A DNA stretch of 53,558 bases from Candidatus Curtissbacteria bacterium RIFCSPLOWO2_02_FULL_40_11 (GCA_001776505.1 MFBV01000032.1:1-53558), one strand, 5' to 3'. Positions 14,379-28,884 are shown, counted from the stretch's first letter. The notes: generated by a model not told the origin, from the letters alone. Numbers and translations: made by a program.

Positions 14379-17300
14379 GTGGCTAATCGAACCTATTGGG
14401 GACAAATAAAAAGCACAAATCTTCCATCCCTTGATCTGGTTAAAATTCAGAGGGATTCATTCGATGATTTCTTGGAAAATGGTATCCAAGAAGTCTTAGA
14501 TGAAGTTTCTCCAATTGACGATTTCACTGGCAAAAATTACACACTAGTTTTCGGAAAATATAGCATCGGCAAACCTAAACACACTCCGGAAGAGGCTCTG
14601 AAAAAAGGTGTCACTTACGATGCTTCCCTAAAAGTAGAAGCAACAGTTATCAATAAACAAACTGGTGTTAAAAATTCGCAGGAAGTATTTTTGTGCGATT
14701 TACCTATCATGCTCAAAAAAGGAGCGTTCATAATCAACGGTATTGAAAGAGCTGTTGTTACTCAGTTGGTACGAGCCCCGGGCGCTTATTATTCTGCAGA
14801 AATTGATCCTTCTTCGGGGAAAATGCTTTACAGTTGTGAAATCCGTCCACTCCGAGGTTCTTGGTTAGAGTTTGCTATCACAAAAAATGATATCATCACC
14901 GTCAAAATAGACAGACGAAGAAAGTTTCCGGTCAGCACATTTTTGCGTGCAATAGGTTTTTCCGAAACCGAACAAATTCTTGAACTCTTCAAACCAATCC
15001 TCAACGAAAACTCCCAAAAACTTTTAAACAACACCCTAGAAAAAGACACAACCGAATCTCAAGAAGAAGCGCTGCTGGAAATTTATCGAAGAATGAGGCC
15101 AGGTGATCATGTCATATTAGACAATGCCAAAGCCTTAATAGAAAATATGTTCTTTAATCCAAGAAGATATTCGTTGGGTAAAGTTGGTAGGTACAAAATC
15201 CAAAAACGGCTGAAAAGGCTAAAAGAAAAACTTTCTGAGAGCGAAGAAAATAAAACTAGCCAAGTACTGACAACCTGGGATTTTGTCTCTTCTATTGCTT
15301 ATCTTTTCGAATTAATAGCCGGTAACGGTAGGCTCGATGACATTGATCATCTCGGTAATCGTCGTCTCAGGAGAGTAGGTGAACTCGTTGCTCAAAATGC
15401 ATTCAGAATCGGAATACTCAGAATTGAAAGAGTTATTAAAGAAAGAATGAGTCTGACACCAATAGAAGAAGATATACCTTCTCCAACAACTCTTATCAAT
15501 GCCCGGCCAATTATTTCTGCAATCAATGAATTTTTTCGCTCCTCGCAACTTTCCACAATTTTAGATCAAACAAACCCACTTTCCGAAGTGGACAATTTAA
15601 GAAGATTAACAGTAATGGGTACTGGTGGAATCGCGAGAGAGAGAGCAGCATTTTCTATTAGAGACATTAATCATTCTCAATACTCCCGAATTTGTCCAAT
15701 CCGCTCACCGGAAGGCCCAAATATTGGGTTAGTTACTTACATGTCTTTGTATTGTAGAGTAAACGATCACGGATTTTTAGAAGCACCCTATAGAACAGTG
15801 GTAAAGGAAAAAGGTGGCAAAGCCAGAGTAACAGATGAAATTGTATATTTAACAGCAGACGACGAAGAGGAATATGCAATTACTCATGCTCAAGTTCCTC
15901 TTGATGATAAAGGTTATTTTGTCGATGATCGTGTGCCGGTAAGAAATAAAGGGGAATTTACAACAGCTTCAAGCAACGAAGTTAATTTTATAGATGTTGT
16001 TCCGCGTCAAGTAGTGGGTACATCGGCATCACTAATTCCATTTTTGGCACATGATGAGGCAAACCGAGCTTTAATGGGTACTCACATGCAGTGTCAAGCA
16101 GTCCCCCTTCTTTTACCGGAATCTCCCATCGTAGGTACTGGTATGGAGGAAGTAGTTGGTACGAATATGGGTAGAGCAGTACTAGCGCCGGAAGATGGCA
16201 CTGTTACTTATGTAGACAGTAAGAAAATTATTTTTAAAACTAAAGCTAATGGAAAATCTCCGAGTAAAACTGTAACTGTACCTATTCAAAAATTCTCCAG
16301 ATCACCTCAAAGCACTTGCTACAGCCAAAGACCAAAAGTAGAAATGAGTCAAAAATTTAAAAAAGGCGATATATTAGCTGACGGTACCGCAACAGATGGG
16401 GGGGAACTTTCTCTAGGCAAAAACCTGAATATTGCATATATGAGTTTTGATGGTCTTGGTTATGAGGACGCTATTGTCATTTCCGACAGACTCGTTAGAA
16501 AAGATACTCTTACTTCCATCCACATAGAGGAATATGAAACATCGGTAGTTGAAACTAAATTAGGACCGGAAGAAACAACCAGGGATATCCCAAATGTTTC
16601 AGAAGAAGATCTGGCAAATCTTGATGAAAATGGAATTGTTGTTATGGGAGCAGATGTAGGTCCAAACGATATTCTAGTGGGTAAGATTGCTCCAAAAGGT
16701 GAAACAGAACTAACCGCAGAAGAAAGATTATTGAGAACAATTTTCGGCGAAAAAGCCAGGGAAGTAAGGGATACATCACTTAGAGTTCCTCATGGAGAAA
16801 AAGGGACAGTAATTGATATAAAAATTCTAGCTCGAGATAAAGGTGACGAATTAGAACATGGAGCACTCAAGAAAATAATTGTCAAAGTTGCGCAAATGCG
16901 CAAAGTTGTTGTTGGAGACAAATTAGCAGGTCGCCACGGTAACAAAGGTGTAATTTCCAAAATAGTTCCGGCAGCCGATATGCCATATATGGAAGATGGA
17001 ACTCCGATCGACATAATTATTAGTCCTCTCTCAGTTTTATCAAGAATGAATTTAGGGCAGCTTCTTGAAACACATTTGGGTTGGGCCGCAGAAAAACTAA
17101 ACTACAAAGTTGCCTTGCCTGTTTTTGAACACGTGGACGAAGAGAGAATTGACAGCGAACTAAAAAAAGCAGGTCTTCCAACCGATGGAAGGACTACCCT
17201 TTACGATGGGCGTACTGGTTTAGAGTTTGACAGACCAATTGTAATTGGCAAAGCGTATATTTTGAAACTAATTCATATGGTTGAAGATAAGACTCATGCT

Positions 17301-17750
17301 CGCTCAACGGGTCCGTATTCACTTATTACCCAACAACCACTAGGTGGAAAAGCTCAAATGGGTGGCCAAAGGCTTGGGGAAATGGAAGTCTGGGCTCTTG
17401 AAGCTTACGGTGCAGCCTATACTCTTCAAGAGATGTTGACTATTAAATCGGACGATGTTGTTGGTAGAGCGAAAGCATTTGAGGCAATTATTAAAGATGA
17501 AGAAATTCCTCAAGCGCTCATCCCAGAATCATTCAAAGTACTAGTTAAAGAACTCAACAGTTTAAGTCTCAATGTTGCAACTCTTGGTGCTAAAACGGCA
17601 GAAGAACAAAAGGTCGAGCCGAAAGAAGAAGCGGTATCTAAAGCAGCTCATGAACTTGCTGAAATTTCGGGAGAAAAAATAATTCCGCTAGAGTCTGAGA
17701 TTGCAAAAGGTAATTCACTAATGGAAATAGAGGAAGTTTCAACAACATGA
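14379..17750 (+). CDS. rpoB: DNA-directed RNA polymerase subunit beta
   Basis: Conserved beta blocks throughout (RPGDHV region, GRHGNKGVISKI, GGQRLGEMEVWALEAYGA). Confidence 0.98.
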   Translation: MANRTYWGQIKSTNLPSLDLVKIQRDSFDDFLENGIQEVLDEVSPIDDFTGKNYTLVFGKYSIGKPKHTPEEALKKGVTYDASLKVEATVINKQTGVKNSQEVFLCDLPIMLKKGAFIINGIERAVVTQLVRAPGAYYSAEIDPSSGKMLYSCEIRPLRGSWLEFAITKNDIITVKIDRRRKFPVSTFLRAIGFSETEQILELFKPILNENSQKLLNNTLEKDTTESQEEALLEIYRRMRPGDHVILDNAKALIENMFFNPRRYSLGKVGRYKIQKRLKRLKEKLSESEENKTSQVLTTWDFVSSIAYLFELIAGNGRLDDIDHLGNRRLRRVGELVAQNAFRIGILRIERVIKERMSLTPIEEDIPSPTTLINARPIISAINEFFRSSQLSTILDQTNPLSEVDNLRRLTVMGTGGIARERAAFSIRDINHSQYSRICPIRSPEGPNIGLVTYMSLYCRVNDHGFLEAPYRTVVKEKGGKARVTDEIVYLTADDEEEYAITHAQVPLDDKGYFVDDRVPVRNKGEFTTASSNEVNFIDVVPRQVVGTSASLIPFLAHDEANRALMGTHMQCQAVPLLLPESPIVGTGMEEVVGTNMGRAVLAPEDGTVTYVDSKKIIFKTKANGKSPSKTVTVPIQKFSRSPQSTCYSQRPKVEMSQKFKKGDILADGTATDGGELSLGKNLNIAYMSFDGLGYEDAIVISDRLVRKDTLTSIHIEEYETSVVETKLGPEETTRDIPNVSEEDLANLDENGIVVMGADVGPNDILVGKIAPKGETELTAEERLLRTIFGEKAREVRDTSLRVPHGEKGTVIDIKILARDKGDELEHGALKKIIVKVAQMRKVVVGDKLAGRHGNKGVISKIVPAADMPYMEDGTPIDIIISPLSVLSRMNLGQLLETHLGWAAEKLNYKVALPVFEHVDEERIDSELKKAGLPTDGRTTLYDGRTGLEFDRPIVIGKAYILKLIHMVEDKTHARSTGPYSLITQQPLGGKAQMGGQRLGEMEVWALEAYGAAYTLQEMLTIKSDDVVGRAKAFEAIIKDEEIPQALIPESFKVLVKELNSLSLNVATLGAKTAEEQKVEPKEEAVSKAAHELAEISGEKIIPLESEIAKGNSLMEIEEVSTT

Positions 17751-20700
17751 ACGAATTAATCGACTTTGATTCCTTAAAACTAACACTTGCTTCGCAAGAC
17801 GACATTAAAACATGGTCATTTGGAGAAGTTACTAAACCAGAAACGATTAACTACCGAACATTAAAACCGGAAAAAGATGGACTGTTCGATGAGAGAATCT
17901 TTGGTCCGACTAAAGATTGGGAATGCTACTGCGGAAAATACAAAAGAATTAGATACAGAGGCATAATTTGTGATAAGTGTGGCGTTGAGGTTACACAATC
18001 ACGTGTAAGAAGAGAAAGGATGGGGCATATTACGCTTGCTGCTCCGGTAGTCCATAGCTGGTTCTTCAAAGGAAGTCCTTCTAAACTAGGCTTACTACTC
18101 GATATTTCTCCAAGAAGTTTGGATGCAGTAGTTTACTTTGCATCATATTTGATAATTGAGGTTGACGACGAAAAGAAAAAAGACGTTCTCAAAAAATTAC
18201 AAGCAGAACTCGAGAAAAAACGTAAAGAACAGCAAGTTTTACTAAAACAAAAATTAGATGAAGAAGAAAAAGCAACCAAAAAAGAAGTCACACAGATGAA
18301 GTCCAAAGGAAAAGTAAAAGAGCAAACAGATATTAAGATCGAAGAATTACAGCTTAATATGAGACAAAGGCAAGCTCATCTTAGGGAAGAATCTTCTCGG
18401 GAGATATCACGATTAGAAGAAATATACAAAAACATTATGGATATGGTCAAATCTGTTAAAGTATTTGATCTTCTAAGCGAAGAGGAATATCTAAAATTAT
18501 ATGATTACAACGCTGAATCATTTCTTAAAGTCGGCATGGGAGCAGAGACAGTTCTAAAAGCACTAGAAAAATTTGATCTCTCCAAATTGGCACTTACACT
18601 AAGAGAAGAAATCGCCAGTTCAACCGGCCAAAAACATATCAAGGCGACTAAAAGATTGAGAGTTGTTGAGGGTATGAGAAAAGCCGAGCTTTCACCAAAC
18701 TGGATGATTATTAAAATTCTACCAGTACTACCGCCGGATTTAAGACCTATGGTGCAGCTTTCAGGTGGTAGATTTGCAACATCCGACTTAAACGATCTTT
18801 ACAGAAGAGTAATTAATAGAAATAACCGACTCAAGAAATTAATTGAACTTGGTGCTCCGGATATTATTCTTAGAAATGAAAAACGCATGCTTCAGGAGGC
18901 AGTGGATGCGCTCATTGATTCGCAAAGAGTAAAAACTACTCGTGCTTCACAAGAGCTCAGATCACTTTCTGATATGCTTCGCGGCAAGCAAGGTAGATTT
19001 AGGCAGAATCTTTTAGGTAAAAGAGTTGATTATTCTGGTAGGTCAGTTATAGTAGTCGGTCCGGAACTCCGCTTAAACCAAGCTGGTATTCCTAAAGAAA
19101 TGGCACTCGAAATGTTTAAACCTTTTATTCTAAGAGAAATAATTGCACGGGGATATGCACCAAATGTTAAAAGCGCCAAACATTACTTGGAGCGAAGAAG
19201 TAGTGAAGTATGGGATATTTTAGATGAGATAACCAAAAACCACCCAATTCTTTTGAATCGCGCCCCCACATTGCATAGATTAGGTATCCAAGCATTTTAC
19301 CCAATATTAATTGAAGGCAATGCCATACGAATTCACCCATGTATTTGTGCCGGGTTCAATGCTGATTTTGACGGCGACCAAATGGCAGTGCATGTTCCTC
19401 TTTCAGAAAAATCTAAGGAAGAAGCACATAGATTGATGTTGGCTGCAAGGAATTTAGTAAGACCATCCGACGGTTCACCAATTACTTTACCAAACAAGGA
19501 AATGGCCCTAGGTGCTTATTACTTAACCTCAATAGACGAGAAGCTTCCCGATTACGATAGCATCTTTGCAGATGAAGATGAAGTGTTATTGGCCTTAAAC
19601 ACTGAGAAAATTGCTCTGAGACAAAAGATCAACGTGTTTATTGGTAAAAAAGTAATTTTAACAACTACGGGAAGAGTTTTGTTTAACAAACAACTGCCCC
19701 AAAGTATGCGATTTATCAATGAAACAATTTCTGCCGGGAGGATAAAACAGCTCATTAATGTTGCTATTGATAAATTCCCGGAAGAAGAAGTCACGGATCT
19801 TATAGACCGACTTAAAGAGTTAGGTTTTGAAGGTGCGACACACTCAGGGCTTTCTGTTTCGGTTTTTGATTGTATGATTGTTGACGATAAGGAGAAGATT
19901 ATTCAAAAAGCAGATAAAGAAGTCGAAGGAATAGAGAAGAATTTCAGCGTCGGTTTGATCACTAAAGATGAACAAAAGAGGCTTTCGCAGGAAGTTTGGT
20001 TGTCTGTTACCAATGAGCTTGCCGATTTAACATGGAGGAGTTTAAGAGAAGATAATTCGATAAAAATTATTTCCGATTCAGGTGGTTCTAGGGCAACTGC
20101 TGAACAGATAAAGCAACTTTCAGCAATGAGAGGATTAGTCACCGATCCTTCGGGGCAAATTGTTCCACTTCCTATTAAGTCTAACTTCAGAGAGGGTCTT
20201 TCAGTTTTTGAATACTTTACAAGCGCTCGTGGTGCGAGAAAAGGTCTTGCAGACAGAGCTATTAAAACTGCAGAATCTGGTTATCTAACAAGAAGATTAG
20301 TTGATGTTGCACATGATGCCATTATTAGGCTTAAAGATTGTGGTACTAAAGAAAGTATCGTTGTTTCAAAATCAGATAAGCGACAAATGCCGTTTACTTT
20401 AAGATTATTCGGAAGAGTTGTTGCTGACGATATTAAATCACCTAAGGGTAAAAAATTATTAGTAAAAGCGAATACTCTTTTAGAAGAAGAACACGTTAAA
20501 GCAATCGACGAGGCAAATGTAGAAGAAGTAAATATCAGATCACCTCTCATCTGTGAAGCCAGATACGGTTTGTGTGCCCTGTGTTACGGGAGAGATCTGG
20601 TTAGCAGAGAGCTTGTTTCTATTGGTACCCCAGTTGGAGTCATTGCAGCTCAATCTATTGGAGAACCAGGCACCCAGCTCACCATGAGAACATTTCATAC

Positions 20701-21433
20701 AGGTGGAATTGTAGGTCTAGATATTACTCAGGGGCTACCTAGAGTCGAAGAGCTATTTGAAGCAAGGACTCCGAAATATATTGCTCAAATTTCGGAAATT
20801 TCGGGGAAAGTAAAAATCGAAGAGAAAGCTGACGAAATTGTTGTCAAAGTTAAGAGCACAAATCTAAAACCTCAAGTCGAAAAAGAATATTCTATTCCAC
20901 CAACAGCCGAGTTTTCTGTTGAAGATGGCCAACTTATTGTAGCGGGGACGCCTCTTTCAACAGGATATTTGGATGTCAAAGAAGTTCTATCAATTTCAGG
21001 TTTAAGAGCTGCTCAAAAATACATAACCAATGGTTGTCAAGAAGTATACGAAAGCCAGGGGGTAGCTATTAACGACAAGCATTTCGAAGTGATTGTCAAG
21101 AAAATGAGTGAAAAAGTGAAAGTAGAAACTTCTGGCGATACAGTACTTCTACCTGGTGAATTAATTGATAAGAATCGTTTTCAAGAAGAAAATGCTAAAG
21201 TAATGGCAGAAGGTGGAGAACCTGCAACAGCTCAGGTAATTCTCTTGGGTATTACAAGGACTGCACTTTACACAGAAAGCTTTCTATCTGCTGCTTCATT
21301 CCAAGAAACTACCAGAATTCTCACAGATGCTGCTATAGAGGGTAAAATAGACAGGCTATTAGGTCTCAAAGAGAATGTTATTATTGGAAGATTGATCCCA
21401 ACCAGCGAACAAAGAGCTACTATAAAGAATTAG
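17747..21433 (+). CDS. rpoC: DNA-directed RNA polymerase subunit beta'
   Basis: Zn finger CYCGKYKRIRYRGIICDKCGVEV, catalytic NADFDGDQMAVH, trigger-loop and bridge-helix blocks; K/E-rich coiled-coil insertion after the clamp. Confidence 0.98.
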   Translation: MNELIDFDSLKLTLASQDDIKTWSFGEVTKPETINYRTLKPEKDGLFDERIFGPTKDWECYCGKYKRIRYRGIICDKCGVEVTQSRVRRERMGHITLAAPVVHSWFFKGSPSKLGLLLDISPRSLDAVVYFASYLIIEVDDEKKKDVLKKLQAELEKKRKEQQVLLKQKLDEEEKATKKEVTQMKSKGKVKEQTDIKIEELQLNMRQRQAHLREESSREISRLEEIYKNIMDMVKSVKVFDLLSEEEYLKLYDYNAESFLKVGMGAETVLKALEKFDLSKLALTLREEIASSTGQKHIKATKRLRVVEGMRKAELSPNWMIIKILPVLPPDLRPMVQLSGGRFATSDLNDLYRRVINRNNRLKKLIELGAPDIILRNEKRMLQEAVDALIDSQRVKTTRASQELRSLSDMLRGKQGRFRQNLLGKRVDYSGRSVIVVGPELRLNQAGIPKEMALEMFKPFILREIIARGYAPNVKSAKHYLERRSSEVWDILDEITKNHPILLNRAPTLHRLGIQAFYPILIEGNAIRIHPCICAGFNADFDGDQMAVHVPLSEKSKEEAHRLMLAARNLVRPSDGSPITLPNKEMALGAYYLTSIDEKLPDYDSIFADEDEVLLALNTEKIALRQKINVFIGKKVILTTTGRVLFNKQLPQSMRFINETISAGRIKQLINVAIDKFPEEEVTDLIDRLKELGFEGATHSGLSVSVFDCMIVDDKEKIIQKADKEVEGIEKNFSVGLITKDEQKRLSQEVWLSVTNELADLTWRSLREDNSIKIISDSGGSRATAEQIKQLSAMRGLVTDPSGQIVPLPIKSNFREGLSVFEYFTSARGARKGLADRAIKTAESGYLTRRLVDVAHDAIIRLKDCGTKESIVVSKSDKRQMPFTLRLFGRVVADDIKSPKGKKLLVKANTLLEEEHVKAIDEANVEEVNIRSPLICEARYGLCALCYGRDLVSRELVSIGTPVGVIAAQSIGEPGTQLTMRTFHTGGIVGLDITQGLPRVEELFEARTPKYIAQISEISGKVKIEEKADEIVVKVKSTNLKPQVEKEYSIPPTAEFSVEDGQLIVAGTPLSTGYLDVKEVLSISGLRAAQKYITNGCQEVYESQGVAINDKHFEVIVKKMSEKVKVETSGDTVLLPGELIDKNRFQEENAKVMAEGGEPATAQVILLGITRTALYTESFLSAASFQETTRILTDAAIEGKIDRLLGLKENVIIGRLIPTSEQRATIKN

Positions 21434-21478
21434 CAAAACTCGACACTTCATAAAATGGTTGATATAATTCGTCGATCT

Positions 21479-21575
21479 AATTTAATTTGAATCTAGCTTT
21501 GCTTGTTCAAATTTTTCCTATAAGGGAAAGAGGAATATTAAGGAGAAAACCGTAGGTTGTCTCCTTAAAGTAGTT
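21479..21575 (+). promoter_or_regulatory. conserved structured leader/operator, copy 1 (upstream of rpsL)
   Basis: About 85 percent identical to 41447-41547; hairpins TTTGAA..TTCAAA, TTCCT..AGGAA, AAGGAGA-AACC-GTA-GGTT-TCTCCTT. Confidence 0.75.
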
Positions 21576-22076
21576 ATGCCAACAGTAAATCAATTAGTAA
21601 GATACGGCAGAAAATCGAAAGAAAAACGTATTAAAGCCACGGCTCTTCGCCGAGCTTTCAATACAAACACTAATCGATATGTTTTTTACCCATCACCTCA
21701 AAAAAGAGGAGTTTGTGTAATTGTAAAAACAATGACTCCCAAGAAACCAAATTCTGCACTTCGAAAAGTTGCTCGAGTTCGACTGTCAAACAAACAGGAG
21801 GTTACAGCGTACATTCCTGGTATGGGTCATGAGCTTGCGGAACATTCTATTGTAATGGTACGTGGGGGAAGAGTCCAAGATTTACCGGGAGTGAAATATC
21901 ACATTGTTCGCGGTAAATACGACACTACCGGTGTTGCAAATAGAAAGCAAGGCAGATCACTATATGGAACTAAAAAATCTGGAGCGGTAAGTACAACTCA
22001 AGCAGCAGTATCTGCAGGAGCTTCTGTTGCAACTCAAGATCAGCCTAAACAAGAATTAGCGGGAGGAGAATCATAA
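21576..22076 (+). CDS. rpsL: 30S ribosomal protein S12 with about 30-aa C-terminal extension
   Basis: [37 protein letters not shown] motifs. Confidence 0.97.
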
Positions 22077-22573
22077 TGCCAAGAACAGGTAAAGTTGAAA
22101 GAAGAAAAACTTCCCCAGATCCTCTTTATCAAAATCTATTAGTTGCAAAACTTATTAACAAAGTTTTGAAACAGGGCAAAAAAACCATTGCTCAAACTAT
22201 AGTTTATGAATCTTTCAATAATATTCGGGCCGGCGGCAAAGACCCACTGCAAACTTTTGAAAAGGCTGTAGAAAATGCTACCCCTAAAATGGAAGTAAGA
22301 CCTAGGCGTGTAGGTGGTGCTTCTTATATGGTGCCGATGGAGGTTAGAGGACCTCGTCGCCAAGCTCTTGCTCTAAATTGGCTTATTACAGCAGCCCGAA
22401 ATCGCCAACTACCAGAAGTAAAAGATCGGCCAAAAAATAAACCAGTTATGATAACCAAACTTTCACAAGAAATACTGGACGCTGCCAATGGTGAAGGCGG
22501 AGCAGTTTCCAAAAAAGCAGAAATGCACAGAATGGCAGAAGCGAATAAGGCGTTTGCCCACTTTAGATGGTAA
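22076..22573 (+). CDS. rpsG: 30S ribosomal protein S7
   Basis: PDPLYQN, VEVRPRRVGGASYMVP, MAEANKAFAHFRW. Confidence 0.97.
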   Translation: MPRTGKVERRKTSPDPLYQNLLVAKLINKVLKQGKKTIAQTIVYESFNNIRAGGKDPLQTFEKAVENATPKMEVRPRRVGGASYMVPMEVRGPRRQALALNWLITAARNRQLPEVKDRPKNKPVMITKLSQEILDAANGEGGAVSKKAEMHRMAEANKAFAHFRW

Positions 22574-22580
22574 TTATCCA

Positions 22581-23030
22581 ATGTCAGAAACTAAAGCCGA
22601 GGAAACCAAAGTAGAATCCCGAAGGGTTACAAGCTTCGATCAGTTAAAGCCAAGAAAATTATATAGATTGCATTCTCATGACAGAAACGGCCAGAGAGAA
22701 GTAGTTGAAGTTAACACAAAAGATTTTTACATAGAAGAACCGGTTGACCCAAATGCACGTGAATTCAGATTTAAAGGATTAATTTATGTGAGGATACCAA
22801 ATAAAATTAAGACAGAAGGTTTAGATCTATTTGATTCGATTAGGTTACACGAATTTGGATTAGTATTTGTTAAAGGTTCCAATGAGGAACTTATAAGACA
22901 AGGGCATAAAGCTCTATCTGATTCCTATATTGTTGTTGAAGATCCATCAAAGGGAATTGGTAGCCCAACACATTCAGATCCTAGTTACAATAATTGGGTG
23001 GAGGAAATTAGCGACAGGGTAACAAAGTAG
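22581..23030 (+). CDS. hypothetical protein (island gene 1; ATG 22581)
   Basis: 149-aa ORF 7 nt after the rpsG stop; no recognisable motif. Confidence 0.5.
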   Translation: MSETKAEETKVESRRVTSFDQLKPRKLYRLHSHDRNGQREVVEVNTKDFYIEEPVDPNAREFRFKGLIYVRIPNKIKTEGLDLFDSIRLHEFGLVFVKGSNEELIRQGHKALSDSYIVVEDPSKGIGSPTHSDPSYNNWVEEISDRVTK

Positions 23031-23065
23031 CTTGTAATACAAGTTTTGCTGCCTAAAATGCCTAA

Positions 23066-23819
23066 AAGGGACGGTCCTTGAAAAAGTTGTTATATCAACC
23101 TAAATCAAGCAATTTTATTTAGTTTTAGCCCTCATATATTTCTTTTGTGCATATGTAGCAAATTTAACGTTCCCCATTACAGCCTCTTCCTTCTCAAATA
23201 ATTTTTCAATAGCACTCAAATCCTCTGAAATTCCGTTAATGATAAATTTCTCATATTCCTTCCTTGAGTTTTCAGTTTTCCCAATCAATCTAATGATATT
23301 TTTATCAAGGAAATGGAGTTGTTCTTTACCAAGAGCTTCTCTGATACTGCTGTATTTGTAATCTAATGGATTTTTGGCTAAGTTAGCTTTAACCGGATTT
23401 AGGTAGATATACTGGGAAAGTTTTAAGAAATATGAATCATTTTCAATGAGGATACTTTTAAATCTGTTTTGAAACACAGGTCCGAAGTGTTCATATTTTC
23501 GATTGAAATACATTGAATAACTTGTTCCCAAGGACGCCATTATCTTTGAGATTGGAACTTTGCGCGTCTGAATCGAAATATGGAAATGGTTTGGCATTAG
23601 ACAAAAAGCATAAAGAGAATGGTCGTACTTGTTTTTTAAGTCATTAAGTTTTCTTAAAAAGAATTGATAATCAGGTTCTGAAATAAAAATAGGTTGTTTG
23701 TTGATGCCCCTATTAAAGACGTGATAGAAAGCATCTGTGAATACGAACCGTGCGCCTCTAGGCATAGAATGTATGTTAATTTTAGCCTATTGCATGAGGC
23801 TTTTCAAGGACCGTCCCTT
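23066..23819. mobile_element. minimal IS200/RayT-like unit: Y1 transposase gene bracketed by perfect 19-bp inverted repeats
   Basis: AAGGGACGGTCCTTGAAAA at 23066-23084 and its exact reverse complement at 23801-23819; each repeat contains a small imperfect palindrome. Confidence 0.8.
23115..23765 (-). CDS. HUH Y1 transposase, IS200-like / REP-associated (RayT-like, COG1943)
   Basis: YHVFNRG, HUH motif LMPNHFHI, catalytic-Tyr context YIYLNPVKANL. Confidence 0.85.
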   Translation of the reverse strand: MPRGARFVFTDAFYHVFNRGINKQPIFISEPDYQFFLRKLNDLKNKYDHSLYAFCLMPNHFHISIQTRKVPISKIMASLGTSYSMYFNRKYEHFGPVFQNRFKSILIENDSYFLKLSQYIYLNPVKANLAKNPLDYKYSSIREALGKEQLHFLDKNIIRLIGKTENSRKEYEKFIINGISEDLSAIEKLFEKEEAVMGNVKFATYAQKKYMRAKTK

Positions 23820-23846
23820 CATACTTCATAGTTTTGGTTTTGTATG

Positions 23847-23875
23847 TTCACTAATATTTAGCCCTATGGTATAAT
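23847..23875 (+). promoter_or_regulatory. promoter TTCACT-N17-TATAAT with extended -10 TG
   Basis: tatggTATAAT at 23865-23875, just outside the right inverted repeat, reading toward fusA. Confidence 0.55.
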
Positions 23876-23964
23876 CCTCGCTTGTCGTAGTTGAAAAACC
23901 TTAACGATTTCTGATCTAATGGAAATTAGGTAAAAAAACTTGTCCTGATAGGCAACGACGAAGA

Positions 23965-24231
23965 ATGGCAATAACACGCACACAAAAATTAAAACAGCTA
24001 AAGGTAAAGCTTCACGATCTTGAAGAAGTTAAGCTAAAAGATGCACTTGCAAAATATGGTGAAGCTTATCAAGATTCGGGTGGAGCTTGGCAGGAAAATG
24101 CCGCTTGGGAGCTAGCAGACGAAGAAATTTCTGTTCTTCGTGCTATGATTCAAGAAGTCAAAAAAGAAATTAAGGCATTGGAGAACCCATCCTCAATATC
24201 CACTACTGCCAAAAATATAAAATCCAAATAA
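23965..24231 (+). CDS. Gre-factor N-terminal coiled-coil-only protein (no C-terminal globular domain)
   Basis: GGAWQENAAWELADEEISVLRAMIQEVKKEI aligns with the GreA tip and helix 2 ([30 protein letters not shown]); 88 aa in total. Confidence 0.5.
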   Translation: MAITRTQKLKQLKVKLHDLEEVKLKDALAKYGEAYQDSGGAWQENAAWELADEEISVLRAMIQEVKKEIKALENPSSISTTAKNIKSK

Positions 24232-24241
24232 AAATTTTACT

Positions 24242-24571
24242 ATGCCTAAAGAAGCTGGACAACAGCAATATTGTATTACAATAGATCGAGACCAGGTGCC
24301 TTCAATTAGTGTCCTAGAAGCTGTATCAGAAGTTGCACTATTAGGCGCAATCAGATTAGTTGAGCTTCTTCCCTACATTGATGCAAAAAACGATGAAACT
24401 TTTCAAAAATTCAAGTCTGACGTAAAAAAGATTATAGCAATGGCGATTATGTCCCTCGAGGTGCGTTTCGTAAAAGGTAGAGGCTGGGAAGTTCCAGAAG
24501 ATCATCCGATGGTAGACCCTTTGAGTTTAGAAGAAATGAAATCACGAGCAATTCAAATCCATCAAATCTAA
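24242..24571 (+). CDS. hypothetical protein (island gene 4)
   Basis: 109-aa ORF with no recognisable motif. Confidence 0.45.
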   Translation: MPKEAGQQQYCITIDRDQVPSISVLEAVSEVALLGAIRLVELLPYIDAKNDETFQKFKSDVKKIIAMAIMSLEVRFVKGRGWEVPEDHPMVDPLSLEEMKSRAIQIHQI

Positions 24572-24576
24572 ATATT

Positions 24577-24654
24577 ATGGCGGACAAAACAAACAGACTT
24601 TATCCACTCGACCAAATCCGCAATAAATCAGAGGAGACTAGAAAATACAATTAG
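24577..24654 (+). pseudogene. ghost fusA 5' end (16 codons) fused to unrelated sequence
   Basis: MADKTNRLYPLDQIRN vs live [16 protein letters not shown] (13 of 16 aa, 31 of 48 nt); diverges exactly before the G1 motif and stops after 25 codons. Confidence 0.8.
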
Positions 24655-24662
24655 AGACAACA

Positions 24663-26801
24663 ATGAAGGATAAGACTACAAGACTCTACCCATTAGATAG
24701 AATAAGAAATATCGGAATCATTGCCCATATCGACGCCGGAAAAACAACAACTACAGAACGAATTCTTTTTTACACTGGAAAAACTTATAAACTTGGCAAC
24801 ATCGATGAAGGTACAACCATCACCGATTGGATGGCTCAGGAAAAAGAAAGAGGAATTACTATTGTTTCAGCAGCTGTCACAACATTTTGGAAAGCAAAAA
24901 GCGGTCCTTATAAAGATACCGATACCAGGATAAACATTATCGATACGCCGGGGCACGTTGACTTTACAGCCGAAGTCGAACGGTCGCTGCGTGTACTAGA
25001 TGGAGGAGTGACTGTTCTTGATGCAGAAGAAGGAGTTCAATCACAATCGGAAACCGTTTGGCGCCAAGCCGACAAATACAAAGTACCCAGAATTTGCTTC
25101 ATTAACAAGATGGACAAATTAGGAGCAGATTACTTCGCAACTCTCAAATCAATTCGTGATAAATTAAATGCTCCGGCAGTTCCCTACAATTTACCAATTG
25201 GTACCGAAAATGATTTCAAAGGTGTTGTCGACCTACTTTCACAAAAAGCTTATGTCTGGGAAACGGGAGTGGACGGTACTGGGAAAGAATTTAAAGAAGT
25301 AGATATTCCCCATGATATGAAGGCAGATGTTGAAAAATACAGAAATGAACTCATAGAAAAAATCGCGGAAACAGATGATACTCTTATAGAAAAATATCTT
25401 GGCGGTGAAACAATAGAAATTGATGAACTCAAAAAAGCCCTCAGAGGAGCGGTCATCAAGTACAAAATTGTTCCGGTTATGGCAGGTTCTTCTCTAAGAA
25501 ATAAAGGTGTTCAACCACTCCTGGATGCGATTGTTGAATATCTGCCTTCTCCCAAAGATATAGAAAAAGTTGAAGGTGAAAATCCCAAAACCAAAGAAAA
25601 AGAGACTCGAAAATTAGTAACAGAAGAACCGTATTGCGGCTTAGCTTTTAAAATACAAGTCGATCCTCATGTTGGAAAACTTACATTTGTGAGAGTATAT
25701 TCAGGTACTTTAAAATCCGGATCTTCAGTCACAAACACTACTAAGAGCAAAAAAGAAAGAATCGGCAGAATACTTCTGATGCACGCAAATACCAGAGAAG
25801 AAATACAGGAGGCATATGCCGGAGAAATCATTGCAATAGTCGGTCTAAAATCAACAGCCACCGGGGATACCCTCTGCGATGATCAACACCCTTTAATTCT
25901 CGAGTCGATCACATTTCCCGATCCGGTCATATCGCTTGCTATCGAACCAGAAACAAAATCCGATCAAGAGAAATTAGGTTATGCCCTTGGACGTCTGGCC
26001 GAAGAAGATCCGACTTTCAAAATTAAAGGCGATCCGGAAACCGGACAGACAATAATTTCCGGGATGGGCGAACTCCACCTGGAAATTATTGTTGACAGGA
26101 TGAAGCGTGAGTTTTCTGTAAACGCTCAAGTCGGTCGTCCTCAGGTAGCTTATCGGGAAACTATCAAAAAAGAGGCAAATGGCGAAGGTAAGTATATTCG
26201 TCAGTCAGGCGGGCGCGGGCAGTATGGACATTGTTTCTTAAAAGTAGAACCAAAACCAAGAGGAGAAGGTTACGAGTTTGTCTCTACTATTAAAGGTGGG
26301 GCAATTCCTTCAGAATTTATCCCGTCAATTGAAAAAGGTGTCATAGAAAAATTGGATCAGGGAATTCTAGCAGGTTACCCACTGGTCGACATGAAAGTTA
26401 CAGTTTATGATGGAAGCTTTCATGAGGTTGATTCTTCGGACATTGCCTTCAAGATTGCAGGGTCTATGGCTGTCGAAGATGCCGCCAAAAATGCCCAGCT
26501 TACGCTTCTCGAGCCGATTATGAAGTGCGAAGTTACAGTTCCGGAAGACTTTATGGGAGACGTAATTGGAGATCTTTCAAGCAAACGTGCCCAAGTCCAT
26601 GGTACTGATCATCATGGAAACAGTGTAATTGTTAACGCTTTAGTACCCCTTGCCGAAATGTCAGGTTACGTTACAACCTTAAGATCAATGACCCAAGGCC
26701 GCGGATCCGTCTACCTTGAACCCTCCCACTACGAAGAGGTACCAACGAATATAGCTGATAAGATAATCTCCAAAGTTAAAGGAGAAAAAAGCGAATCCTA
26801 A
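24663..26801 (+). CDS. fusA: elongation factor G
   Basis: [24 protein letters not shown] and domain IV/V blocks. Confidence 0.98.
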
Positions 26802-26897
26802 AAATTTGTCTTAGATCCTGAGCGAGTGAAACGAGTCGAAGGACTGATAAGATTGTTGCTAAAAGCAAAGGGGAAAAAGAAGAAAGTTGATTAGGTC

Positions 26898-26925
26898 TTG
26901 CATTTTCTTATTGCAATAGTATAAA
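26898..26925 (+). promoter_or_regulatory. promoter TTGCAT-N16-TATAAA upstream of tuf
   Basis: -35 at 26898-26903 and -10 at 26920-26925. Confidence 0.55.
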
Positions 26926-26936
26926 CTATCAAAACT

Positions 26937-26993
26937 AAATATCAGCCTGTCACGTCTGTCCTGAAATGTTTACGTGGCAGAAAACTGATATTT
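26937..26993 (+). promoter_or_regulatory. long hairpin in the tuf 5' leader
   Basis: AAATATCAG/CTGATATTT (9 bp) stacked on CTGTCACGT/ACGTGGCAG (9 bp, one G-U). Confidence 0.6.
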
Positions 26994-27023
26994 TGTTTTG
27001 TTAAAGTCCTAAAAAGTAATATT

Positions 27024-28208
27024 ATGGCTGAAGGAAAATTTAATAGAAGCAAACCACACGTAAATATCGGAACAATTGGTCACGTTGACCACGGTAAAAC
27101 AACGCTAACTGCAGCAATTACCAAAGTATTAGCAGATAAAGGCATGGCTAAAGCTAAAGCCTTTGAAGAAATCGACAACGCTCCGGAAGAAAAAGACCGC
27201 GGAATTACAATTAATATTACTCACGTAGAATATGAAACTGAAAAACGTCACTACGCTCACATCGACGCACCGGGACATGCAGACTATATTAAGAATATGA
27301 TTACAGGCGCTGCCCAAATGGATGGCGCTATTTTAGTTGTTAGTGCACCAGACGGTCCAATGCCTCAAACCAGAGAACACGTTCTTCTTGCTCGCCAAGT
27401 TAATGTTCCGGCAATTGTTGTCTTTTTAAATAAAATAGATATGGTTCAAGACAAAGAACTTTTAGATCTAGTCGAACTAGAAGTTCGAGAACTTCTCGAC
27501 AAATACGAATTTGATGGTAAAAACGCATCAATAATTAAAGGTTCTGCCAAAAAAGCTCTCGAGGGTGATGCAGAAAGTGTTAAGGCGATAGAAGAATTAA
27601 TGGCAGCAGTTGATGAAAAAATCCCAACTCCAAAAAGAGATTTAGAGAAACCATTCTTAATGCCAATAGAGGATGTTTTTTCAATCAAAGGCCGAGGTAC
27701 GGTAGTTACAGGTAGGATTGAAAGAGGAGTTGTAAAAGTTAACGAAGAAATTGAAATAGTAGGTATAAAACAGGCAAAAAAGACAACAGTAACTGGTGTA
27801 GAAATGTTTAGAAAAGAACTCGATCAAGGTCAAGCAGGCGACAACGTTGGTGTACTTTTAAGGGGAATCGAGAAGAATGATGTAGAACGTGGCCAGGTTC
27901 TTGCAAAACCAGGTACAGCTACACCACACACAGAATTCGAAGCAGAAGTTTATATTCTAAACAAAGAAGAAGGTGGACGACACACACCTTTCTTTACAGG
28001 CTATCGGCCACAATTCTACATTCGAACCACAGATGTTACAGGCGAAGCAACGCTTCCCGAAGGCATAGAAATGGTTATGCCTGGTGACAACATCAAAATG
28101 AAAATTAAACTCATTGTCCCCGTAGCACTGGAAGAAGGACTTAGGTTTGCAATCCGCGAAGGCGGTCACACGGTTGGCGCCGGAGTGGTTGCCAAAGTCC
28201 TCGCATAA
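27024..28208 (+). CDS. tuf: elongation factor Tu
   Basis: [27 protein letters not shown]-terminal beta-barrel domains. Confidence 0.99.
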
Positions 28209-28498: not shown

Positions 28499-28548
28499 GA
28501 CCTTAGTCGTTAGTCATTTTGCATTTTCGTGAAAGGAACATATTAAAA

Positions 28549-28884
28549 ATGGCACCAGTTGAATTTTACAGTCCTTGGTCGAGAACAAAAATGGTTGTTG
28601 ATCCAGGGAAAACTGAATCATTGACAGTTAATTGGCCCGGTGGGAGAAAAGGAAGGCCGATAAAGAGAACGATAGAAATCAAATGCGAGGAGGATGATCT
28701 GTCAAGTACTATTTCTACTCACGTCATTGAGGGTAGGACACGAATCCAAATCGGCTCCTTTGAGATAGGGTTTGTGCCTGAGGCAATTGATGATAGGACG
28801 AAAGAATCATGGACACTTGAAAAAGGAAGATCAGCAACAATTAGCATAGAAGATTTTGATTTACTAAAAGTCGACCATAAGTAA
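28549..28884 (+). CDS. hypothetical protein inserted between tuf and rpsJ (ATG 28549)
   Basis: 111-aa ORF with no recognisable motif. Confidence 0.45.
   Translation: MAPVEFYSPWSRTKMVVDPGKTESLTVNWPGGRKGRPIKRTIEIKCEEDDLSSTISTHVIEGRTRIQIGSFEIGFVPEAIDDRTKESWTLEKGRSATISIEDFDLLKVDHK

Follow-up and report, generated by a model that had tools for sequence, protein, structure and literature searches.

Factors that act through the secondary channel of bacterial RNA polymerase unite a channel-entering coiled coil with a polymerase-binding globular domain at the C terminus, and a pair of acidic tip residues in the coiled coil is functionally important (PMC4598747). In Escherichia coli GreA they correspond to D41 and E44, which make contact with the catalytic Mg2+; binding is promoted by the globular domain, which stays outside the channel (PMC7527559). 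A Gre-like coiled coil can also sit in the channel without promoting cleavage, as in Gfh1 and Rv3788, Gre homologues whose effect on RNA polymerase is inhibition instead of stimulation, and TraR, a truncated DksA homologue of conjugative plasmids, shows that a secondary-channel factor can be shortened and still act on RNA polymerase (PMC4598747). Here we describe mini-Gre, a small gene that encodes a Gre-type coiled coil by itself and lies between rpsG and fusA in a 53,558-nucleotide (nt) stretch of the genome of Candidatus Curtissbacteria bacterium RIFCSPLOWO2_02_FULL_40_11 (MFBV01000032.1), a member of the Microgenomates within the Candidate Phyla Radiation (CPR). We refer to this whole stretch as the window, and coordinates are window positions unless another contig is named; L-numbers (L001–L055) denote loci or contigs of relatives, and P-numbers denote distant mini-Gre proteins.

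Few bacterial gene orders are as conserved as rpsL-rpsG-fusA-tuf. In the window, the junction between rpsG and fusA is split by about 2 kb, which separate the rpsG stop (22573) from the fusA ATG (24663). The original prediction listed in this interval two orphan open reading frames (ORFs), here called ORF1 and ORF4, an antisense Y1 transposase, a promoter, a Gre-N-only ORF, and a “ghost” fusA 5' end, and it interpreted them as a single accessory island. All of these features do lie between the two genes, at coordinates that were right to within 1 nt, and the insert is indeed partly accessory and variable, as ORF1 and the transposase cassette are absent from most relatives. Since at least seven contigs that were assembled independently, and that stem from several samples and sources (L010–L014, L017, and L049), show the same layout at 99–100% identity, the rpsG-fusA arrangement is not an assembly artefact. 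With a probability of roughly 0.7, we consider the interval to be a layered locus at the border of two predicted transcription units, rather than a single island. What is new here amounts to a Gre derivative of a single domain that has become fixed within the str operon, combined with ordinary accessory DNA.

A Gre-type coiled coil in the str operon

The mini-Gre gene (23965–24231, plus strand) encodes a protein of 88 amino acids (aa), for which 254 homologues were detected. A scan of GTDB species representatives recovered 28 mini-Gre loci, all Curtissbacteria-like. The gene rpsG lies upstream of mini-Gre in 26 of these 28 loci, and fusA lies directly downstream in every one of the 27 that reach that far. 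The order rpsG-mini-Gre-fusA was also found in L001–L009, L019, L020, and L050, a set of contexts that includes megabase contigs (L001/L002), a second Rifle metagenome-assembled genome (MAG; L004–L006), and Hainich groundwater contigs (L007–L009). Typical gaps in these contexts are 10–150 nt from rpsG to mini-Gre and 4–10 nt from mini-Gre to fusA, and in most genomes the downstream gene begins 4–15 nt after mini-Gre. One locus, L041 (CAZLVB010000004.1), carries mini-Gre, fusA, and tuf, but neither rpsL nor rpsG lies in the 4 kb upstream of them; the place of the two ribosomal genes is taken by small ORFs, one of which encodes a membrane protein.

A HMMER search of 1.84 billion representative proteins returned only 21 mini-Gre relatives, all of them 54–120 aa long. 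Four of the five distant relatives that were looked up (P0127, P0128, P0133, and P0138) are encoded between rpsG and fusA (L051, L053, L054, and L055); the contig of the fifth, P0135, is just 561 nt long and shows no gene context. Two tandem mini-Gre paralogues, belonging to two sequence types, lie between rpsG and fusA in L051 (1257–1731) and L055 (514–950), and L053 holds a pseudogene remnant of a second mini-Gre copy (1578–1643).

An alignment of 46 mini-Gre sequences contains 31 invariant columns, and its conserved core reads LEEVKLKDALAKYGEAYQ[DE]SxxAWxENAAWELADEE[IV]SVLRAM. Pairwise ratios of nonsynonymous to synonymous substitution rates (dN/dS) of mini-Gre against five relatives were 0.07–0.09, compared with 0.06–0.09 for ribosomal protein S7, showing that purifying selection on mini-Gre is as strong as on S7. 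An additional gene, as slow in its evolution as a ribosomal protein, has been kept between rpsG and fusA throughout a lineage of uncultured CPR bacteria. Because mini-Gre adjoins fusA in 27/27 Curtissbacteria species loci and in distant relatives, it is a conserved extension of the operon, which counts against an island by the criterion that the original prediction itself had set, and the idea that it was cargo of an island had to be given up. Judged by sequence and gene order, mini-Gre is a conserved member of the str operon, and these comparisons establish rpsL-rpsG-[mini-Gre]-fusA-tuf as the ancestral gene order of Curtissbacteria. The products of mini-Gre and ORF4 match, at 100% identity, NCBI proteins that belong to MAGs of Curtissbacteria obtained from the Rifle aquifer. 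Mini-Gre bears an automatic domain name in UniRef and is labeled “hypothetical” in NCBI, and our literature search turned up no publication that deals with Gre-N-only proteins of CPR bacteria or with insertions between rpsG and fusA in these lineages.

The relation of mini-Gre to Gre factors emerged at the level of the family. Forty-four of the 46 members match the Pfam domain GreA_GreB_N (PF03449) at sub-threshold scores, and the distant members P0133 and P0138 carry precomputed PF03449 matches. When a profile of the broad family was searched against the PDB, the best match was E. coli GreA (1grj, E = 3.2e-4), with profile positions 11–71 aligning to GreA residues 12–70, the entire coiled coil; the second match was a GreA/Gfh1 chimera. 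The classic Gre motif is found in distant members (WGDLSENAGYEQA in P0138 and GGDWHENAEFEDAE in P0135), which carry GDLSENAGY or GDWHENAEF, and some of them keep both acidic tip residues (e.g., GDWHEN and GDLSEN). Across the 46 Curtissbacteria members, the coiled-coil core (positions 4–75 of the 88 aa) aligns without a gap. The Gre signature ENAxY/W...A.E is retained in mini-Gre, and the equivalent of E44 is invariant across its members. AlphaFold2, run with the family alignment, predicted a helical hairpin with helices at 5–37 and 46–73. Taken together, these results show that the N-terminal antiparallel coiled coil of mini-Gre is homologous to the N-terminal domain of GreA/GreB.

Several observations weigh against a close relation to Gre factors. 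The window protein itself scores 19.5 bits against GreA_GreB_N and is thus under the cutoff of 24.5. A profile of the Curtissbacteria members alone did not find GreA in the PDB, and GreA emerged from the PDB profile search only once the distant members had been added. Confidence in the AlphaFold2 model is moderate, with a mean predicted local distance difference test score (pLDDT) of 69 and values below 50 in the tip loop. Foldseek searches with the hairpin model, a check that the original prediction had proposed, yielded generic antiparallel coiled coils, among which GreA ranked 3 and 16 with non-significant E values of about 3. The protein ends after the coiled coil, and the C-terminal globular domain of Gre factors is missing family-wide. 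Finally, the D41 equivalent is Ala or Ser in 46/46 Curtissbacteria sequences, which leaves one of the two catalytic acidic residues unconserved. Because the C-terminal domain is absent and the D41 equivalent is lost, we describe mini-Gre as a single-domain derivative of the Gre N-terminal domain and do not file it as a Gre factor. The next gene downstream, ORF4, was considered as the missing C-terminal half of a split GreA and was rejected, since it has no GreA_GreB match and most mini-Gre genomes have no ORF4.

Compared with GreA and GreB, mini-Gre has an antiparallel coiled coil of equal length and the same tip signature, including the invariant glutamate, and it is likewise a small protein of an abundant-protein context whose gene stands beside core genes of transcription and translation. 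It differs from them in lacking the globular domain, in its length of 54–120 aa, in the presence of fusA or ORF4 4–15 nt downstream, in the Ala/Ser at the D41 position in Curtissbacteria, in its fixed place in the str operon, and in the tandem paralogues of some lineages. The Gfh1/Rv3788 group resembles mini-Gre in the activity that we propose for it, namely occupation of the channel by a Gre-like coiled coil without promotion of cleavage, but both of these proteins retain the C-terminal domain and both acidic tip residues, unlike mini-Gre, whose sequence affinity to them is no greater than to Gre N-terminal domains generally. TraR, in contrast, belongs to the DksA lineage and retains the globular, zinc-containing part while having lost half of the coiled coil; mini-Gre represents the reverse half.

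We tentatively assign mini-Gre to the secondary channel of RNA polymerase, at odds that fall somewhat short of even, with a modulatory or occluding role favored over the stimulation of cleavage. The coiled coil would insert into the channel, and the predicted high, EF-G-like expression would make up for the missing anchoring domain. Once inserted, mini-Gre would modulate or occlude the channel in the manner of Gfh1 rather than stimulate transcript cleavage, the latter being less likely since the D41 equivalent is lost. The gap-free coiled-coil core and the retained Gre signature fit a channel-spanning probe, and rpsL is directly preceded in its gene string by rpoB (14379–17750) and rpoC (17747–21433), both on the plus strand. 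In the work of Koulich et al. (1998), the isolated N-terminal domain of GreA is reported to retain activity but to bind poorly.

A role in translation, the main alternative, strikes us as rather unlikely. Under this explanation, mini-Gre would assist the ribosome or EF-G as an accessory coiled-coil protein, translationally coupled to EF-G, and its likeness to Gre factors would be a matter of ancestry or fold only. The linkage of mini-Gre is tighter to fusA than to rpsG or rpoBC, which counts against a role at the polymerase and would suit a translation partner equally well: the gene accompanies fusA in 27/27 loci, usually at a distance of 4–15 nt on the upstream side, and does so in L041 despite the lack of rpsL and rpsG nearby. 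The genes that share its operon all encode proteins of the decoding center or the GTPase center, the Gre domain that binds RNA polymerase is absent, the D41-equivalent residue is lost, and the helical hairpin of ribosomal protein uL29 appears among the weak PDB matches of the profile (E = 0.077). However, the sole significant similarity of mini-Gre to a characterized protein is to the N-terminal domain of GreA, over its full length. The signature and the gap-free core of the 46 members are moreover what one would expect of a channel probe, and the proximity of rpoB and rpoC in the same gene string also speaks for the polymerase. We also consider rather unlikely the broader proposal that mini-Gre founds a new class of factor that works on its own: a Gre coiled coil without an anchoring domain, made in EF-G-like amounts, which would serve either as the sole Gre-type factor of RNA polymerase or as a probe re-used in translation. 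If true, mini-Gre would be a minimal secondary-channel regulator, or a direct link between the cores of transcription and translation, in reduced genomes. Action on RNA polymerase would imply that the anchoring domain is dispensable at high expression and would provide a minimal scaffold for studies of secondary-channel regulation; action on the ribosome or EF-G would imply that a transcription-factor module was recruited into translation.

Predicted promoter region and cargo slot upstream of mini-Gre

Upstream of mini-Gre lies the predicted promoter P1 (TTCACT-17-TGgTATAAT; 23847–23875, plus strand), which has 10/12 consensus matches plus the TG of an extended -10 element and is located outside the transposase cassette. 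In an alignment of the 170 nt upstream of mini-Gre, the block TATAATCCTCGCTT was found in L004, L015, L019, L020, L025, L029, L034, and L043, all of them loci without the transposase except L015, which is possibly a chimeric contig. The motif TTTCTGnTnTAATnGAATTT occurs within 400 nt upstream of mini-Gre in 18 of 38 loci, some of which have no P1. The conserved leader block that follows P1 (23891–23927, plus strand) had no match to any Rfam family, and we therefore read it as promoter elements rather than as a known RNA motif: it may constitute a second extended -10 promoter, composed of TTGAAA (23891–23896), an 18-nt spacing, and TGaTCTAAT (23912–23920). These comparisons of upstream regions show that a conserved, predicted promoter region precedes mini-Gre in many lineages and that P1 is native to the locus. 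It had been suggested that the promoter arrived with the island and that fusA now depends on it. The -10 region and the downstream motif are, however, present in relatives that have no transposase (L019, L020, L025, L029, L004, L034, and others), so that any dependence of fusA on this predicted promoter is not a consequence of the insertion, and the predicted internal promoter ahead of mini-Gre, fusA, and tuf predates the transposase in this clade. Four loci (L001, L007, L023, and L024) place mini-Gre only 5–32 nt past rpsG, which leaves no room for a promoter.

With such a promoter, mini-Gre, fusA, and tuf would need no read-through from rpsL, and this inferred independence would account for the tolerance of insertions upstream of it. 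Two further features of the leader were observed. In L021, L022, and L050, the TATAATCCTCG block is set apart from the conserved leader motif downstream of it by an insertion of 46 nt. In addition, the motif GATCTAATnnAATTT is found at 21474–21488, just past the -10 element of a promoter-like site of rpsL, and again at 23913–23927 in the mini-Gre leader. Allowing up to two mismatches, it has 13 matches in the window, compared with 5.75 expected, and it may be a shared operator or promoter element.

In most species, the spacer between rpsG and mini-Gre measures 5–325 nt; longer spacers hold genes that are unrelated to one another. The window carries ORF1 and the transposase cassette at this place, L022/L050 a 183-aa ORF and the cassette, and L021 a 218-aa ORF and the cassette. 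The other occupants found were a 162-aa ORF that starts 10 nt past the rpsG stop (L020), a 504-aa ORF (L048), a patatin-like gene (L031), and a 213-aa ORF to the right of the cassette (L018). The stretch from rpsG to the promoter is thus shown to be a permissive cargo slot, filled by different, unrelated genes in different species. A core operon can host cargo of fast turnover, including a Y1 cassette that appears to have spread recently between species, provided that the cargo lies upstream of an internal promoter.

ORF1 (22581–23030, plus strand) encodes 149 aa and starts 7 nt past the rpsG stop, which places it in a highly expressed context, as the original prediction had stated. Its description as an orphan also held: its only relatives are copies from the same species, 99–100% identical to it, and no homologue beyond this species was found among 5.8 billion clusters. 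Searches of ORF1 against Pfam, NCBIfam, PADLOC, and PHROGs gave no match. We consider ORF1 to be a real, species-specific gene. Its codon-usage score in frame is +0.23, far above those of its other five frames (-0.19 to -0.55) and equal to those of rpsL and rpsG (+0.24 to +0.25). ORF1 is intact in seven of seven independent contigs, and its start just behind rpsG resembles that of the unrelated slot ORF of L020. That ORF1 is instead non-functional, a frame that opened by chance or only very recently in filler DNA separating rpsG from the cassette, appears unlikely in light of this frame-specific codon signal. Such an origin would fit the lack of homologues and of domain matches, the single-sequence AlphaFold2 model, which at a pLDDT of 36 is unusable, and the fast turnover of slot content between species. 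It would also fit the strain polymorphism, which is sparse, with two differences seen, both nonsynonymous.

The second occupant of the slot is a 770-bp cassette (23061–23830), which consists of a transposase gene between two inverted repeats. The gene (23115–23765, minus strand) encodes a Y1 (HUH) tyrosine transposase of 216 aa, which resembles RAYTs (REP-associated tyrosine transposases) and matches Pfam Y1_Tnp with 48.4 bits (cutoff 23). Among NCBIfam models, its best match is REP_Tyr_transpos, over profile positions 8–146 of 146, at 71.5 bits and thus below the cutoff of 80. The translation contains the HUH motif HFH (in MPNHFHIS) and the tyrosine motif YIYLNPVKA (Y..NP); no match was found among PDB sequences. 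Bracketing the gene is a perfect 19-nt inverted repeat, AAGGGACGGTCCTTGAAAA, which the original prediction had not listed. Its left arm (23066–23084, plus strand) and right arm (23801–23819, minus strand) are found 31 nt and 36 nt away from the coding sequence, and two copies in the window compare with 0.01 expected by chance. The repeat copies are conserved in L015, L016, L021, and L022, and no further copy with up to three mismatches exists in the 53.5-kb window. The arms contain a 5-bp hairpin that is weak and no better than in shuffled sequences, and the right arm contributes the -35 element, with which it overlaps, to a promoter-like site of the transposase on the minus strand (23807–23779).

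Similarity to L015, L016, L021, L022, and L050 begins and ends at the edges of the cassette, with different neighbors on both sides. Between the window and L050, the cassette is 91–100% identical, including a block of about 320 nt at about 23460–23780 that is 100% identical, compared with 75–85% for rpsL, rpsG, and fusA. Synonymous divergence (dS) of the transposase between species is 0.06–0.09, compared with 1.6–2.1 for S7 and EF-G, and its dN/dS is 0.2–0.4. This low divergence relative to the flanking genes, together with the identical block, suggests that the cassette was recently moved or exchanged between species.

At least three species-level lineages (the window, L021, and L022/L050) carry the cassette in one and the same chromosomal slot, which raises the question of whether the transposase is instead a domesticated, vertically inherited, and very slowly evolving RAYT, its variable neighbors being the result of unrelated indels. 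RAYTs are typically single-copy and vertically inherited, with some groups evolving more slowly than housekeeping genes (PMC5581495), and the bracketing of the gene by two inverted copies of one motif is as seen in RAYTs. Nonetheless, we regard this explanation as improbable. Constraint at the protein level cannot explain why synonymous divergence is about 20 times lower than in the neighboring S7 and EF-G genes, or why 320 nt are completely identical between genomes that are about 80% identical elsewhere. The transposase also shows relaxed dN/dS and a codon-usage score of +0.07, the least host-like of the locus, it scores under the NCBIfam RAYT cutoff, and its repeat has no extra copy in the 53.5-kb window. 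The cassette is moreover missing from the close relatives L019 and L020, whose mini-Gre proteins are 92% and 81% identical to that of the window. A recently mobile cassette therefore remains our preferred reading.

Among described elements, RAYT/REP systems and the IS200/IS605 family come closest to the cassette. With RAYT/REP systems it shares a Y1 HUH transposase with the RAYT-type Y..NP motif and REP_Tyr_transpos as its best NCBIfam model, the flanking of the gene by two inverted copies of a short motif, and an apparently single copy at one conserved locus. It differs from RAYT/REP systems in its sub-cutoff score, in the weakness of the palindrome within each repeat, in the absence of dispersed repeat copies from 53.5 kb, and in the recent interspecies exchange indicated by its dS, RAYTs being mostly vertical (PMC5581495). 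Likeness to the IS200/IS605 family lies in the Y1 transposase (Pfam Y1_Tnp), the compact unit of about 0.8 kb, and the evidence for mobility. The ends of IS200/IS605 elements are dissimilar subterminal hairpins, and these elements have no terminal inverted repeats; the cassette, in contrast, ends in a perfect 19-nt inverted repeat with weak hairpins in its arms.

Three contigs (L015, L016, and L018) are 100% identical to the window from mini-Gre on and have different DNA to the left of the cassette or inside it. In L015, a left half like that of L022 is joined to a right half like that of the window; in L016, the left side carries membrane-protein genes; and L018 has the extra 213-aa gene and a promoter region that is only 78% identical. 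They reflect either polymorphism between strains or chimeric assemblies that arose through the identical block of the cassette. Two of them, L015 and L016, with their alternative cassette neighbors, may be such chimeras, which tempers our reading of the variation at the cassette edges. In the A3A54 MAG, the locus tags of ORF1 (01650) and mini-Gre (00705) are distant from each other, which suggests that this assembly breaks at the cassette.

ORF4 and the displaced start of fusA

ORF4 (24242–24571, plus strand) encodes 109 aa and follows mini-Gre. Its label as an orphan had to be revised. In L020, a 109-aa ORF in the same slot is 53% identical to ORF4 over its full length (dN/dS 0.19 at a saturated dS of 1.6), and L019 has a weak homologue, a 91-aa ORF that is colinear with ORF4 at 30% identity. 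In L022/L050, ORF4 is internally deleted, leaving a 19-codon in-frame remnant, MPKEAGQQQLCITDDANQI*. Its codon-usage score of +0.25 is host-like. No match to ORF4 was found in Pfam, NCBIfam, PADLOC, or PHROGs, and a scan of metagenomes recovered only the same strain and the L050 remnant. These sequence comparisons show ORF4 to be a real gene that was gained in a subclade, is maintained by selection here, and was deleted in a sister lineage, and its deletion there indicates that it is dispensable.

Between ORF4 and fusA lies a sequence that resembles the 5' end of fusA. This ghost (24577–24624, plus strand) begins with an ATG at 24577, reads MADKTNRLYPLDQIRN, and opens a 25-codon mini-ORF (24577–24654) whose TAG stop at 24652–24654 precedes the real fusA ATG at 24663 by 8 nt. 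In L020, L022, and L050, the fusA ATG lies 5 nt past the stop of ORF4 or of its remnant, which is the position of the ghost ATG in the window. The ghost matches the fusA start of L050/L022 at 41/51 nt, compared with 32/51 nt for the fusA start of its own genome. Past codon 16, it gives way to a 38-nt leader (24625–24662, plus strand) that is unlike any sequence upstream of fusA in about 35 relatives. On these sequence grounds, the ghost is shown to be the ancestral start of fusA, displaced by a replacement of the first 16 codons together with the 38-nt leader. Replacement by recombination is the simplest account: recombination with an illegitimate left junction would have introduced a new leader along with the initial 16 codons of fusA, and the old start would have stayed behind as a scar. 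A recent tandem duplication is unlikely, as the two copies differ at 19/51 nt and the 38-nt stretches upstream of them are 39% identical in a hand comparison, with only AAATCA shared at the junction; an old duplication is a possible origin. The mini-ORF of the ghost may keep ribosomes coupled from ORF4 into fusA.

With all parts of the interval described, the possibility that the whole 2 kb is one recent accessory island can be weighed. Such an island, as first proposed, would carry three novel cargo genes for stress response or phage defense and its own promoter, on which fusA depends. The variability of ORF1 and the cassette, which are missing from most relatives, fits this proposal, as do the G+C content, somewhat lower over 22600–23800 (0.31–0.36) than in the flanks (0.38–0.45), and the fact that none of the three ORFs passes a curated family threshold. 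The island description thus holds for ORF1 and the cassette and for ORF4 in part. It fails for mini-Gre and the promoter, which are found at this place across the lineage without the transposase, and ORF4 is common to L020 and L019. ORF1, ORF4, and mini-Gre all have native codon usage. Nor did the proposed function find support: PADLOC had no match for any of the four ORFs, PHROGs gave only a weak match of the transposase to a family of unknown function, no stress-domain signal was detected for the three ORFs, and scans of viral contigs with ORF1 and the transposase found nothing. Given the lack of PADLOC matches, we dropped defense as a function. We consider a single defense or stress island to be very improbable and retain the layered locus as the explanation of the interval.

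The surrounding gene string

The interval is bordered upstream by rpsL (21576–22076) and rpsG (22076–22573; ribosomal protein S7, Pfam Ribosomal_S7, E = 2e-51) and downstream by fusA (24663–26801; EF-G, Pfam GTP_EFTU, EFG_III, EFG_IV, and EFG_C) and tuf (27024–28208), all on the plus strand. No intrinsic terminator was predicted on the plus strand over 21300–27100. The rpsL product, S12, is 166 aa long, and its C terminus is extended by about 30 aa of low complexity; alignment of relatives is limited to residues 1–134 up to 1–158. Between L010 and the window, 41 synonymous and 7 nonsynonymous substitutions are confined to rpsL and the rest is near-identical, which suggests a recombination tract.

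Two intervals farther along the gene string also vary. The fusA-tuf spacer (26802–27023) contains a long imperfect hairpin at about 26930–27000 followed by a U-run, with a folding z-score of -2.0; it is possibly a terminator or attenuator ahead of tuf. An Rfam scan of 21300–27100 returned nothing beyond two chance-level miRNA matches, both of which fall on this hairpin. In relatives, the same spacer holds cargo genes, namely a Peptidase_S51 gene, a PIN toxin pair, and an ART-PolyVal gene. Between tuf and rpsJ, finally, the window has an unannotated ORF (28519–28884; 111–121 aa) with no Pfam match. This ORF is present in window-like contigs, is replaced by a different ORF of 128–146 aa in L004–L006, and is absent in L001 and L007, so that the tuf-rpsJ interval looks like a third variable slot of the same gene string.

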